This document shows, piece after piece, positions 4,351-41,954 of a stretch of 57,107 nt of DNA. Made by a program: the position numbers and the translations under genes. The DNA is from a virus. The notes beneath the pieces were generated by a model. The model made no database searches. It worked only from the letters and a program-made list of their open reading frames with translations, and was not told the origin of the DNA. The stretch is from UHGV virus genome UHGV-1334481. One strand, 5' to 3'. Numbering within the stretch: the first letter of the stretch is position 1; each line of letters starts with the position of its first letter.

Positions 4351-5974
<1,624 letters not shown>

Positions 5975-37961: not shown

Positions 37962-38492
37962 ATGTCTCTTTATACAGAACTGAATGAAACTTCCGAAAAA
38001 TCTTTTGATGGTATCTTATCAATAATGCAAAAGCAGGTATTAGAACAGCTTAGTGAAGCCGCAAGCAATGGGCACAAGGCTTGTCGAGTCCGAAGCCCAC
38101 ATCGCCGCATGTATGAACGCCCTCTTATTAATTGGCTAGAAAGCGAAGGTCTTACGGTTAAGATTTGCCCTGCTAAATTTGATGTCCCACGTATTCTTAA
38201 TATTTACTGGGATAAACCGATTGATAAACCGGTTGAGAAAAGTGACCCTTGGGTTGTTAATGTAAAAACATGTGATAATGGATGCTCACTTGAGGTGTCT
38301 GCTGTAATTAAAGGCACTCACGGTGAAAAAACGTGGGGTTGGCCTGGTAAAGATAAAGAAATCGTGTTAAGTGTAAAAGCTACTAGTATTAGTACTCCTA
38401 TAGCTAAAAGCATTATCGCCGCCGCTGTTGAAGAAGCTGAACGAATTTGTAAAATTAAAAATAGTTTACACCTCTTAAATAGCATGATATAA
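37962..38492 (+). CDS. hypothetical protein
   Basis: 176-aa ORF with GAGGAAA RBS. Confidence 0.6.
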   Translation: MSLYTELNETSEKSFDGILSIMQKQVLEQLSEAASNGHKACRVRSPHRRMYERPLINWLESEGLTVKICPAKFDVPRILNIYWDKPIDKPVEKSDPWVVNVKTCDNGCSLEVSAVIKGTHGEKTWGWPGKDKEIVLSVKATSISTPIAKSIIAAAVEEAERICKIKNSLHLLNSMI

Positions 38493-38534
38493 TTCTTCCA
38501 CAGATTTTATTTTTAATCAACCTAAGGAAATACT

Positions 38535-39128
38535 ATGAACACACTAAAGAAAATTGTTGAGTTTATTCGCACTAAACTTGGTTCTGCTATGGCTAAAAAT
38601 CTATCTGTTGAAGAACAGTATACTGCTGCAGCAGCAAAACTGCTTGATAAAATTAAAGATCTAAAAACTGCTTCTGTTAAATCTATTAATGAAGAAAAAC
38701 GTATTCGTGAACTTATTGTCGAAAAGAATCGACAGGCTGAATCAAAAGAGCGTGAAATTCGTAAACTTCTTTCCGAAGGTCAAGATGTAACAATGCATGC
38801 TAAACTCGGTTTACTATATCGTCGAACAGCTGAGCAGTTGACTACTAAGGCTGACGGTTATGCTGAAATGCGAATTGAAATCGCCAAGAAAGTAGTTGAG
38901 TTAGATGATGCTCGTCAAGAGCTTGCAGTTAAATTGGAATATATCCGTGAAACTCGTGCGGCAAATGCCCTTGGAATTAGTACTGCCGATGATGTAGTTG
39001 AAATTGCAGCACTGACTAAGGTTGATATTGAAGATACCCTTGCTCGAGTTGAAACCTTTAATGGTAATATTTCTGGGGTTGAAACTACCTCTGCCGATGT
39101 TCAGGAATACATTAATTCTCTGAAATAA
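38535..39128 (+). CDS. hypothetical protein (coiled-coil-like)
   Basis: 197-aa ORF with AGGAAA RBS; heptad-like charged composition. Confidence 0.6.
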
Positions 39129-39132
39129 TGAT

Positions 39133-39156
39133 AAGGGGCTTCGGCCCCTTATACTT
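39133..39156 (+). terminator. stem-loop, weak terminator
   Basis: aaggggc-ttcg-gcccctt hairpin right after the stop at 39128; downstream U-run is poor. Confidence 0.4.
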
Positions 39157-39169
39157 GGAGTAAATAGGA

Positions 39170-39784
39170 ATGAAAATGAAAATGCAAAGTGATTTCAATT
39201 CAATGTTTGAAGAGTTCCAAAGACAGGTTGATGTTCCAGACCAATTACTAAATGCTCTTAAACGCATGGCAGAAGGACGTAATTACTATTGGGGGTCTTC
39301 ATATGAAACTGATGAAAGTCTTTCTGGAAGATTTTATAGAGGTAAAAAGTCTTTAATACGTCCTGGAATACTCATTAACAGTATTGAATCAATTCATTCA
39401 TTGACATGTGATTTTGATGTTGAATTTACTGATTTCATTTCTCCTGAATGGACGGTTTGTTATTTAAACGACGATTATGATTATCTTGGCGTTTATAGTT
39501 TAAGTGATGCATGGTTTAAACGTAATTTACAAAAATCAAATTTATTTTATATTGATACTACGGTAAAATTTCAGGGAAAGAAATATTTCTTTACTCTTAT
39601 AGTTGACTCTGAAACAAAATATGAAAATAAGCGTATTCTTAGTAAAAAGAATATCTTAACTATTGTTGATGATCTTTTTGATAAATTCGTAGAAAATCCC
39701 AATTTTGAAAGCGATTTATTATTAGAAAAATTTGTTAAGGAATGTAGAGAATATGTCAAAGCCATCACTATACCTTCCAAGTAA
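39170..39784 (+). CDS. hypothetical protein
   Basis: 204-aa ORF with GGAG RBS. Confidence 0.6.
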   Translation: MKMKMQSDFNSMFEEFQRQVDVPDQLLNALKRMAEGRNYYWGSSYETDESLSGRFYRGKKSLIRPGILINSIESIHSLTCDFDVEFTDFISPEWTVCYLNDDYDYLGVYSLSDAWFKRNLQKSNLFYIDTTVKFQGKKYFFTLIVDSETKYENKRILSKKNILTIVDDLFDKFVENPNFESDLLLEKFVKECREYVKAITIPSK

Positions 39785-40145
39785 ACCTGTGAAGTATGAA
39801 CCAAAGCGTCAGCTAATTTCTACTGATGTGTTAATAGGTCCTGTGGTAGCTGTATCATTTGTGATTTTGGTGATTGCTGGAATGGTTATAGACGTTATGA
39901 CTGATATTGAATCTGGTGTAATATTTGGAGCAACACTAATTCTTCCATTGGTAGTTCCGCTTTTATTAGTACCTGTAAATTGGGTAGGATACTGGTATCA
40001 AGGAAGACATTATCGTAAACGTGTACGTGATTGGAAAGCTCAGTGTAAAAAGATTAAAAAGGAACACCAGCTTAAGCTAGATATGTATGAATTTGATGAA
40101 ATTATGAAATTTGTTAAGGAATCACGATGCAAAAGCCAAAACTAA
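39753..40145 (+). CDS. small membrane protein (member of a tandem trio)
   Basis: Start at ATG 39753 (tool ORF began at TTG 39732); two hydrophobic helices then a basic tail; overlaps the upstream gene. Confidence 0.5.
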   Translation: MSKPSLYLPSKPVKYEPKRQLISTDVLIGPVVAVSFVILVIAGMVIDVMTDIESGVIFGATLILPLVVPLLLVPVNWVGYWYQGRHYRKRVRDWKAQCKKIKKEHQLKLDMYEFDEIMKFVKESRCKSQN

Positions 40146-40501
40146 ATAAAGTCAAATATTCTTTTTCTGAGTCATTTTTAATTTTTGCTGTGGCATTGGC
40201 TGCAGCTCTTGCGGGTAGTTTTATTGGATTGTTAATTGACTGTTTTATTTTAAACATCCGCAGTAACGTCAGCGGTATAGTAGATATAATAGAAGTTTGG
40301 AGTGAACTTCATTATACTATAGCAATTTCATTATTTTCATTCTTTGGTACCATGTTATATTTTCATTATGATAATTTTAAAATAAATTGGCAAAGAAAAA
40401 AGGATTACAAAATACAATTAAAGGAATATAATAGCTATATGTCTTATATTGAAAAAGAATCAATGGAAGAGTTTGTGAGTGATTGTAGGAAAATTAAATG
40501 A
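40127..40501 (+). CDS. small membrane protein (member of a tandem trio)
   Basis: 124 aa, two predicted TM helices; start embedded in the upstream gene end (AAGGA RBS). Confidence 0.6.
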   Translation: MQKPKLNKVKYSFSESFLIFAVALAAALAGSFIGLLIDCFILNIRSNVSGIVDIIEVWSELHYTIAISLFSFFGTMLYFHYDNFKINWQRKKDYKIQLKEYNSYMSYIEKESMEEFVSDCRKIK

Positions 40502-40986
40502 TTTTAAAAACTCGCTGGTATGATTTAGATGATGGGGACGATGGCATTTCAGTTGATAGAGTTGACTGGAGCGGCTGTTCTGAAGATACAAAGAAACGAT
40601 TAATTAGGGAGTTTAGAATGGGATATCAAGCAGTTAAGCCATCTACTGTAACAGATGATAAATTCGTGTGTATTCATAATGGTCGTGCTAAGTTAACGAA
40701 TGCTGAATGGTTCACAGATAAGATTATGATTCTGTGGTATATCATTAGTCTTCCTGTGTCATCATTCGTATTTTACTTTTTTATAAAAAATCCAATGGAC
40801 AGAATAGGAGATTGGATTCTTTTAACCATACTTGTTAATATTTTTACAGCATCAATATTATCAGGAATATGGTACATGTTCATTGAAATGCCATGGCGGA
40901 TGCGCAGACAACAAAAGATTTTTGATGAAAAGAAATATGCTCAAAATTTAAATAATTTTATCACTGAATGCAGGAAATTAAAATGA
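40498..40986 (+). CDS. small membrane protein (member of a tandem trio)
   Basis: 162 aa, hydrophobic segments; ATGA start/stop overlap with neighbours. Confidence 0.6.
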   Translation: MILKTRWYDLDDGDDGISVDRVDWSGCSEDTKKRLIREFRMGYQAVKPSTVTDDKFVCIHNGRAKLTNAEWFTDKIMILWYIISLPVSSFVFYFFIKNPMDRIGDWILLTILVNIFTASILSGIWYMFIEMPWRMRRQQKIFDEKKYAQNLNNFITECRKLK

Positions 40987-41423
40987 AAACACTATCAGCT
41001 GGTATTATCTTTATGACAGAAGATAAAGATTTATTTATGGGACGAGTTACTGGTTCTCGTAAACATGGAATGATGGCACATCGCTGGGATATTCCAAAGG
41101 GGCGTGTAGAAAGTTCTGATTTAAGCGCACTAGATGCAGCACGAAGAGAATGCTTAGAAGAGACTGGCTTTAGCAATTATAATCCAGACCTTCTAGAAGA
41201 CTTAGGTGTATTTAAATATTCTAGTAATAAAGACTTACAGTTATTTTATTATACGATTCCAGTAGAGCATGAGATGTTTAGAAATTGCCATTGCGAGTCT
41301 TATTTTGAAAATAAAGATGGCGTTATGATTCCAGAGATGGATGCTTTTGCTCTTATTCCTCGTACTCAGTGGCAATATGTGATGGGCCCTTCACTTTACC
41401 GAATAATGAACAGCCTCTTTTAA
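40983..41423 (+). CDS. nudE: Nudix hydrolase NudE (e.1)
   Basis: Nudix box GRVESSDLSALDAARRECLEETGF; start at ATG 40983 coupled to the upstream stop; about 147 aa (T4 e.1 is 151 aa). Confidence 0.8.
   Translation: MKTLSAGIIFMTEDKDLFMGRVTGSRKHGMMAHRWDIPKGRVESSDLSALDAARRECLEETGFSNYNPDLLEDLGVFKYSSNKDLQLFYYTIPVEHEMFRNCHCESYFENKDGVMIPEMDAFALIPRTQWQYVMGPSLYRIMNSLF

Positions 41424-41954
<531 letters not shown>

Follow-up and report, generated by a model that had tools for sequence, protein, structure and literature searches.

A gapless block of early genes in a T4-like genome

We analyzed the UHGV virus genome UHGV-1334481, a stretch of 57,107 nucleotides (nt) to which we refer as the window, with the focus on three tandem open reading frames (ORFs) that a first-pass annotation of the letters alone had placed at 39753-40145, 40127-40501, and 40498-40986 and described as mutually overlapping genes for small membrane proteins. 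The window is a Tequatrovirus (T4-like) genome: in a sequence search, its region 39100-41500 matched more than 500 T4-like records, with 99.7% identity to the Escherichia phages PBM-1 and UGKSEcP2. The three ORFs are present at these coordinates and are the genes e.4, e.3, and e.2, i.e., catalogued T4-type early membrane-protein genes and not new objects. They lie between e.5 and nudE, upstream of the lysozyme gene e and of denV, which is the position of the T4 e.4/e.3/e.2 groups, and the annotation comparison gave the same order (e.6-e.5-e.4-e.3-e.2-nudE-e-denV) in the window, RB51, and T4. The matching PHROG profiles were covered over their whole length by e.4 (2604, E-value 5.5e-70), e.3 (2330, 7e-62), and e.2 (2203, 3.2e-77). 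The homologs found were 66-99% identical; amino-acid identity to the T4 copies is 78-87%, and individual genes reach 100% on an IMG/VR contig. The T4 counterparts of e.4, e.3, and e.2 are the UniProt entries P39222, P32274, and P32273, described as "conserved hypothetical, predicted membrane protein".

The overlaps described for the three ORFs were recovered (19, 4, and 4 nt with the respective next gene), and they are part of a longer arrangement. The block e.5-e.4-e.3-e.2-nudE contains no intergenic base, and its successive overlaps measure 32, 19 (40127-40145), 4 (ATGA at 40498), and 4 nt (ATGA at 40983). The genes of the block are the following:

39170..39784, + strand: e.5, 204 residues, soluble, first cistron of the block (RB51/T4 annotation; PHROG 2607, E-value 6e-110)
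39753..40145, + strand: e.4, 130 residues, predicted helical-hairpin inner-membrane protein with a long basic tail (PHROG 2604, hydropathy)
40127..40501, + strand: e.3, 124 residues, membrane protein, e.4 paralog by profile comparison (PHROG 2330), ending ...MEEFVSDCRKIK
40498..40986, + strand: e.2, 162 residues (PHROG 2203, precomputed Pfam PF26896), with a basic tail ending ...LNNFITECRKLK
40983..41423, + strand: nudE (e.1), Nudix hydrolase, last cistron of the block (Pfam NUDIX, E-value 1e-13), its start overlapping the e.2 stop

Two hydrophobic helices and a basic tail had been assigned to each of the three ORFs. On Kyte-Doolittle hydropathy (19-residue window, threshold 1.6), the two helices stood for e.4 (strong segments at ~26-46 and 55-78) and e.2 (76-96 and 103-129); e.3 has one strong segment (16-42) and a second one (63-80) that reaches only ~1.1 by hand calculation, below the threshold, and that pairs with the second transmembrane helix of e.4 in hhalign. 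All three tails are basic (K+R versus D+E in the last 45 residues: 14/7 in e.4, 10/8 in e.3, and 9/4 in e.2), and Kyte-Doolittle hydropathy gave no hydrophobic segment in e.5. The earlier description also lacked the soluble N-terminal domain of e.2, an acidic stretch of 75 residues that precedes its two hydrophobic helices and basic tail. With basic N-termini and tails and acidic loops, a topology that has both termini in the cytoplasm is the best supported for these proteins. AlphaFold2 modeling of e.4 gave a mean predicted local distance difference test score (pLDDT) of 67 and helices at 24-49, 54-108, and 111-126; the e.2 model (mean pLDDT 52) was unusable. The e.4 homologs bear the precomputed Pfam family PF26873.

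Natural variation was observed in two of these proteins. The e.4 protein occurs in two allelic forms whose differences are almost confined to the loop and the first transmembrane helix; one form (P0183-P0186) is ~69% identical overall, with a nearly invariant N-terminus and tail. In e.3, the loop carries a 4-residue indel polymorphism.

A shared C-terminal motif and the junctions that contain it

The first-pass annotation reported near-identical DNA at the ends of e.3 and e.2, encoding CRK(I/L)K and supplying the ribosome-binding site and start of the next gene. This is what we found: e.3 ends in tgt agg aaa att aaa tga (CRKIK-stop) and e.2 in tgc agg aaa tta aaa tga (CRKLK-stop), identical at 15/18 positions without gaps, and in both cases AGGA, 7 nt ahead of the ATG, is the Shine-Dalgarno sequence (SD) of a cistron whose start overlaps the stop as ATGA. 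A second pair of repeats lies at the two upstream junctions, where the exact 16-mer AAATTTGTTAAGGAAT (direct repeat D9) is common to e.5/e.4 and e.4/e.3; the score of the alignment between these two junctions was reached by 0/500 dinucleotide shuffles. The junction repeats, and an internal element resembling the terminal motif, are located as follows:

39728..39743, + strand: junction repeat type 1, copy 1, AAATTTGTTAAGGAAT, encoding K-F-V-K-E of the e.5 tail, with AAGGA upstream of the e.4 ATG at 39753
40107..40122, + strand: junction repeat type 1, copy 2, AAATTTGTTAAGGAAT, encoding K-F-V-K-E of the e.4 tail, with AAGGA 6 nt before the e.3 ATG at 40127
40484..40501, + strand: junction repeat type 2, copy 1, TGTAGGAAAATTAAATGA, with CRKIK-stop, SD AGGA, and the e.2 start as ATGA
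40969..40986, + strand: junction repeat type 2, copy 2, TGCAGGAAATTAAAATGA, with CRKLK-stop, SD AGGA, and the nudE start as ATGA
40032..40058, + strand: internal W-K-A-Q-C-K-K-I-K of the e.4 tail, with no start codon after it

In this overlapping-cistron arrangement each stop overlaps the next start and the SD lies inside the upstream ORF, with AAGGA or AGGA 11 nt ahead of the e.4 ATG and 6-7 nt ahead of the other three. The four junction RNAs are unstructured, folding no better than shuffles (z +1.5, +1.2, -0.4, and +0.4). From this anatomy, the block from e.5 to nudE appears to be built for translational coupling. Sizeable frames on the + strand of the window share 10 ATGA stop/start overlaps, and sequence is shared only at e.3/e.2 and e.2/nudE; none of the other eight has the motif peptide. 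The similarity between these two junctions continues for ~35 nt into the genes that follow (repeat D7; 2/500 shuffles). We do not regard this extension as meaningful, because the reading frame differs between the copies and because genera in which e.2 does not adjoin nudE also conserve the e.2 N-terminus (MI.K..W.nlDDgdeGI).

Further details of the overlaps concern reading frames and starts. In the e.5/e.4 overlap (window 39770-39790), CCTTCCAAGTAAACC gives P-S-K in both frames (e.5 ...IPSK-stop, e.4 ...LPSKP...). The E-C codons of e.2, GAATGC (window 40968-40985), give rise to a further ATG in the nudE frame, 15 nt ahead of the ATGA start. The T4 RefSeq annotates nudE from the upstream ATG (151 residues) and RB51 from ATGA (146 residues); the SD spacing is proper only for ATGA. 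Two annotated starts in other genomes look misplaced on sequence grounds: that of the e.4-like VR26_138 (L007 696-962) likely lies upstream in the tail of the preceding gene, giving an N-terminus ...TLYLPSKPE like that of e.4, and that of the Entb_45 nudE (L005 5052-5462) is probably the ATG at 4986, overlapping the e.2-like gene.

The shared ending is wider than first described, taking in e.5 and e.4. The pattern L-x-x-F-[IV]-x-[ED]-C-[RK] closes e.5, e.3, and e.2, with Ser in place of Cys in e.4, so that the tails of four consecutive genes read ...KFVKECRE.. (e.5), ..KFVKESRC.. (e.4), ..EFVSDCRKIK (e.3), and ..NFITECRKLK (e.2). The e.5 protein ends ...LLLEKFVKECREYVKAITIPSK, with the motif at 39731-39751 and its last 32 nt within e.4. 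The e.4 protein carries KFVKESRCKSQN at its terminus and WKAQCKKIK at residues 94-102, an internal element that its orthologs keep as W-[KE]-x-[QK]-C. A six-frame search of the whole 57 kb for C[RK]K[ILV]K yielded three occurrences, all of them within e.4, e.3, and e.2. Across the window and the remaining ~111 kb of T4 (the T4 scan left out ~2 kb around 50-51.4 kb), a C-terminal F[IV]x[ED]C[RK] was present only in e.5, e.3, and e.2; a looser C-terminal pattern added e.4 and two hits without gene assignment.

A cross-phage comparison of the junctions had been proposed together with the first-pass annotation. Among the compared Tequatrovirus genomes the core AGGAAA(A)TTAAA(A)TGA is invariant, with approximately the last 15 nt, from SD to ATGA, invariant as DNA. 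We then compared the regions upstream of nudE in Mosigvirus PHB12, Gaprivervirus VR26, Dhakavirus WG01, Kanagawavirus Entb_45, and Jiaodavirus KP179. Across the six Tevenvirinae genera, 19 distinct motif-bearing tails were found, in e.5-, e.4-, e.3-, and e.2-like genes and in extra two-helix paralogs, and here both the codons and the register of the SD differ. The Arg is encoded by AGG, AGA, CGT, CGA, or CGC and the Cys by TGT or TGC; sometimes V, I, or S stands in place of the Cys. An SD occurs in every case, supplied by K-E (AAGGAA, in ...FIKECRK-stop), E-E (GAGGAA, in ...FIEECRK-stop), or R-K (AGGAAA, in the Tequatrovirus ...CRK[IL]K-stop). The spacing between the motif and the following ATG varies as well, by ~11 nt between the e.5-position genes of Tequatrovirus and KP179.

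The substitution patterns point in the same direction. In 5-11 Tequatrovirus genomes, the ratio of nonsynonymous to synonymous substitution (dN/dS) was 0.11-0.15 in the cytoplasmic tails, with ordinary synonymous divergence (pS 0.14-0.20); nudE, at 0.11, was like the tails, and the transmembrane hairpins reached 0.43-0.71. Within the window, the tail of e.3 departs from that of e.2 by conservative or synonymous changes (V/I, S/T, D/E, TGT/TGC, I/L). Judged by these comparisons, selection maintains the motif as protein. The spacing of L(-3), F(0), I/V(+1), and C/V(+4) is compatible with residues along one side of an amphipathic helix, and in the e.4 model the motif falls within the terminal helix.

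Outside Tequatrovirus, the tail was also found on proteins of dissimilar sequence. In VR26, KP179, and Entb_45, the BLAST-detectable similarity of the e.5-position proteins to e.5 is limited to the 15-residue C-terminal tail; these genes without an e.5-like body are VR26_139 (L007 1030-1584), KP179 (L006 3206-3796), and Entb_45 (L009 449-1153). Their bodies have either diverged very fast or been replaced upstream of a retained tail and junction.

A separate family with its own C-terminal motif was seen between the e.3-like and e.2-like genes of Mosigvirus, Gaprivervirus, Dhakavirus, and Kanagawavirus, where 3-5 tandem soluble proteins of 65-105 residues are encoded (L002 1132-1926; L003 271-1539; L004 302-1341; L005 445-1524 and 1871-2068). 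They all share the ending W-[VIF]-x-S-S-x-x-C-stop, after which TAAGGAA usually comes. Neither the window nor T4 has this second paralog family.

Relationships among the proteins, loss of e.2, and surroundings of the block

Pairwise alignment had been suggested as a check, and its result depends on the method used. With BLAST and with profiles built from Tequatrovirus only, just the last 13-15 residues align; such profiles are too shallow (effective number of sequences, Neff, ~1.2), and orthologs from other genera were therefore needed. With cross-genus family alignments, hhalign paired e.4 and e.3 end to end (probability 94.7%, E-value 6.4e-8, 115 columns), e.3 and e.2 over the last 19 residues (probability 91.6%, E-value 8e-7), and e.5 with e.3 or e.2 over 12-15 residues (E-value ~1e-3). 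When unmixed family hidden Markov models (HMMs) were run against 290 local ORFs, the e.3 HMM retrieved the e.4 of the window over its full length (E-value 4.7e-4) and the e.2 HMM retrieved the VR26 e.3 over the second helix and tail (E-value 2.6e-5). The same HMMs gave zero hits in the reversed-sequence control of this database. On this profile evidence, e.4 and e.3 are tandem full-length paralogs. The comparisons also show e.2 to be related at least over the second hydrophobic helix and the tail, and e.5 in the tail only; e.2 is probably more distantly related, with an N-terminal domain added to it.

We also considered a tandem-duplication model in which the last 28 residues of e.4 would be a copied e.5 tail and the original e.4 end would be the internal CKKIK. 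The DNA segments e.5-tail/e.4-head and e.4-tail/e.3-head do align. We rejected it because hhalign pairs the terminal FVKESR of e.4 with FVSDCR of e.3 in the full-length alignment, and because both W-x-x-Q-C and the terminal motif are already present in the examined Mosigvirus, Gaprivervirus, and Jiaodavirus e.4 orthologs. Ordinary paralogy of e.4 and e.3 is simpler.

The e.2 gene is exactly absent from T2, CE1, GRNsp7, Manna, and one IMG/VR contig, in which e.3 is fused to the e.2/nudE-type junction. The e.2-less e.3 reads ...gagtgat TGCAGGAAA ttaaaATGAaaaca, i.e., an e.3 tail followed by the e.2/nudE-type junction (the copy 2 version of repeat type 2), with the crossover inside the shared 9-mer TGCAGGAAA. 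The deletion amounts to 485 bp and leaves an e.3 that ends in CRKLK and still overlaps nudE in the coupling arrangement. In the phage collection, 499 records matched the interior of e.3, 498 that of e.4, and 448 that of e.2, so approximately one-tenth of the Tequatrovirus records are without e.2. No natural deletion of e.4 between the two 16-mers was evident in these records, e.4 being present in about as many as e.3.

Two other variants affect the same genes. The window and T4 have the same e.4, e.3, and e.2 genes in the same synteny, with no substantive difference except that e.2 is intact in the window (162 residues), whereas the T4 reference copy (NC_000866, L015 2037-2522) has a frameshift in an A-run (ttataaaaaatcc in the window versus ttataaaaatcc in T4) and stops after 102 residues, losing the second helix and the tail. 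In vB_EcoM-UFV11 (L016 1415-1735), an in-frame e.4(1-31)::e.2(88-162) fusion across the microhomology TCCTGTG removes e.3 and half of each neighbor, and a two-helix protein with the tail motif remains. The T4 frameshift, the UFV11 fusion, and the e.2-less phages together indicate that e.2 and e.3 are dispensable in natural isolates.

Upstream of the block, two further features were identified:

38465..38493, + strand: candidate early promoter for an e.6-to-nudE transcript, the best sigma-70-like match upstream of e.6 (TTTACA-17-TATAAT, TG-extended, 11/12, on a consensus scan alone)
39131..39152, + strand: GC-rich 9-bp hairpin ATAAGGGGC-TTCG-GCCCCTTAT with a UUCG loop, between the e.6 stop and the e.5 start

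The hairpin marks the upstream edge of the gapless block, has no T-run after it on the + strand, and may be an RNA-stabilizing or processing element. A 176-residue ORF at 37962-38492 matches RB51 RB32ORF130c (noted in RB51 as similar to RB69ORF146c); T4 has e.7 at this place, and thus the gene content just upstream of e.6 differs.

Interpretation and comparison with known systems

We consider it likely that the junctions reflect a conserved protein motif with an embedded translation-initiation site, within a T4-type e.5-e.4-e.3-e.2-nudE block that includes the paralogs e.4 and e.3. As the end of one gene coincides with the start of the next, the motif codons serve as SD: the purine-rich codons of its polar residues (K-E, E-E, or R-K) would double as the SD of the next gene. 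The two near-identical junctions around e.2 provided the 9-nt homology for the clean excision of e.2 in the T2 lineage, with e.3 intact and its coupling to nudE kept. More tentatively, the proteins could be inner-membrane hairpins with both ends in the cytoplasm, whose constrained tails might bind a common partner or each other and whose fast-evolving transmembrane and periplasmic parts might face a variable environment; at least e.2 and e.3 may be non-essential accessory proteins.

Several points weigh against this reading. The homology of e.2 and e.5 to e.3 and e.4 covers the tail, or the second helix and the tail, where convergence on a short motif is possible; the alignments within Tequatrovirus are shallow, which is where only the last 13-15 residues aligned, and membrane-protein composition can inflate profile scores. 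The topology was derived from hydropathy and the positive-inside rule, with the weak AlphaFold2 models of e.2 and e.4 (mean pLDDT 52 and 67) beside it. Coupling was deduced from anatomy alone, and in T4 the e.4 and e.5 proteins are classed as early, e.2 as middle, and e.3 as late, although the RNAs of e.2 to e.6 are classed as early and the e.2-e.5 proteins were all detected by mass spectrometry (PMC9697503, supplements 4 and 6); these differing temporal classes disfavor a tight stoichiometric coupling. The invariance of the SD-to-ATG core as DNA means that an RNA-level constraint certainly contributes over the last ~5 codons. The 16-nt identity of the e.5 and e.4 tails, which by a rough estimate is ~6% likely given identical peptides and an assumed codon bias, could stem from gene conversion. 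Lastly, the e.3 alleles of the e.2-less genomes are 96-99% identical, so the excision may have been a single event.

The first-pass annotation had proposed that the shared ending reflects a reused translational-coupling module rather than protein homology. A module that recurs is consistent with the invariant SD-ATGA core, the unstructured junctions, and the T2-type crossover, but its peptide is kept across genera with different codons. The exclusion of protein homology does not hold in view of the varied Arg and Cys codons, the sliding SD, the constrained tails (dN/dS 0.11-0.15), and the full-length paralogy of e.4 and e.3. In its strong form, the proposal is that a DNA-level cassette (SD plus ATGA) is reused at gene boundaries and that the resemblance of the C-terminal peptides is a side effect of this, with no homology or function at the protein level. 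This would account for the invariant core in Tequatrovirus, for the exact 16-nt and near-identical 18-nt repeats, for the T2-lineage loss of e.2 exactly between two junction copies, for a motif that adjoins the next start and supplies its SD in every instance in six genera, and for the VR26, KP179, and Entb_45 e.5-position proteins that share the 15-residue tail only, as if bodies had been swapped upstream of it. However, the SD does not cover F, I/V, C, and R, which are kept via different codons, a change from AGG to CGT requiring at least two substitutions; the SD shifts between K-E and R-K while the peptide is unchanged, and the motif-to-ATG distance varies. Moreover, the e.3 and e.2 tails differ by conservative replacements (V/I, S/T, D/E, I/L), the tails combine low dN/dS with normal pS, and e.4 and e.3 can be aligned over their full length. 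Since the motif is conserved as protein and the SD lies inside it, we do not take the recurring junction for a DNA cassette that was copied apart from its proteins, and we regard such a cassette as improbable.

A second alternative concerns the function of the proteins. Membrane-level exclusion or immunity had been suggested for this array, in the sense of superinfection-exclusion proteins at the inner membrane, similar to Imm, in which the variable membrane and periplasmic parts would be specificity determinants. The proteins are small, early, and membrane-anchored, as is T4 Imm (83 residues, two transmembrane helices, early, inner membrane); compared with the tails, their transmembrane hairpins and loops show a 3-6 times faster evolution, one e.4 allele is distinct in the first helix and loop at ~69% identity, and e.2 and e.3 are dispensable in natural isolates. 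Imm, however, lies at a different genomic location and is without a basic amphipathic tail or the F-I-x-E-C-R motif, and the HMMs of e.2, e.3, e.4, and e.5 scored at most 3.4 bits against it with filters off. The PADLOC defence and anti-defence models gave zero hits at E-values up to 1, local Pfam and NCBIfam searches with e.2-e.5 and PDB sequence searches gave no functional match, and a dN/dS below 1 fits relaxed constraint equally well. A Foldseek search of the e.4 model against viral structures returned orthologs only, and an e.3 HMMER profile run against 1.84 billion representative proteins gave seven hits at E-values ≤0.001, most of them clear e.3 relatives and the weakest spurious-looking. 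Our literature search found no functional study of e.2 to e.5 and no experimental report; a toxicity screen of Mosigvirus AV110 names other genes, and its text does not mention e.2, e.3, or e.4. Overall, an exclusion role seems doubtful.

Some GenBank labels in this region are unsupported, namely "sulfurtransferase" for e.3/e.4, "DNA primase" for one e.3, "major capsid protein" for the T2 e.4, and "host specificity protein" for e.6. The first looks like annotation drift: no sulfurtransferase or rhodanese domain was found in e.3/e.4 at the curated cut-off in Pfam and NCBIfam, where only sub-threshold chance matches appeared.

Convergence or chance, in which AT-rich codon usage and a purine-rich SD in overlapping gene ends would yield similar K/R/E-rich C-termini, can point to the commonness of ATGA overlaps (10 on the + strand of the window) and to an overlap geometry that forces a terminal ...AAA TGA and GGA-containing codons, but it is very improbable and largely refuted, as the other eight ATGA junctions lack such a peptide, F, I/V, and C of the motif are not purine-coded, the motif is limited to this cluster in the scanned T4-type genome, and the profile comparisons are significant with an empty reversed control.

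The preferred reading of a conserved motif with an embedded initiation site can be set beside two kinds of known arrangement. As in the common ATGA-coupled cistrons of T4 and other compact phages, a stop lies over the next start, the SD is in the upstream frame, and the RNA around the initiation site is without structure; what differs here is that the SD codons belong to a peptide motif common to four consecutive genes. As described in two papers (PMC2839356, PMC4122927), the promoter-early stem-loop (PeSL) cassettes of T4-type phages are composite promoter-terminator motifs that are likewise short conserved gene-boundary sequences in variable regions, and recombination between their copies adds or removes whole genes with expression signals intact, as the e.2 excision in T2 does here. 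An early promoter and a stem-loop terminator flanking an ORF were not found in the block: the junction RNAs have z values from -0.4 to +1.5, and no strong promoter match occurs at the junctions, a permissive scan giving weak matches inside the block (e.g., 40404-40432, 10/12). PeSL elements reportedly sit in intergenic DNA, whereas the repeats of the e block are coding sequence for a conserved peptide together with SD and start codon, in a block with no intergenic DNA.

Several T4 proteins bind the gp45 clamp via C-terminal peptides. By analogy, the motif might be a portable docking tag that gathers the soluble e.5, or its dissimilar replacements, and the membrane hairpins e.4, e.3, e.2, and their paralogs on one cytoplasmic hub or hetero-oligomer, a speculation that we think unlikely. 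If true, the fast-evolving membrane and periplasmic parts would be specificity determinants in conflict with hosts or competing phages.

The new details are modest: a tail motif common to neighboring genes, in which a ribosome-binding site is embedded and shifts its position between genera, and the clean excision of e.2. Like a large number of other T4 early genes, e.2 to e.5 have no assigned function, and the current understanding of T4 biology is unchanged. The e.3/e.4 paralogy and the presence of one constrained tail on four neighboring proteins, one of them soluble, offer an experimental handle; because the tail is confined to this cluster, it could be mutated or used as bait. More generally, the block is a clear example of dual coding, in which the same codons specify a protein motif and the ribosome-binding site of the next gene, and in which the resulting DNA repeats can excise a gene.

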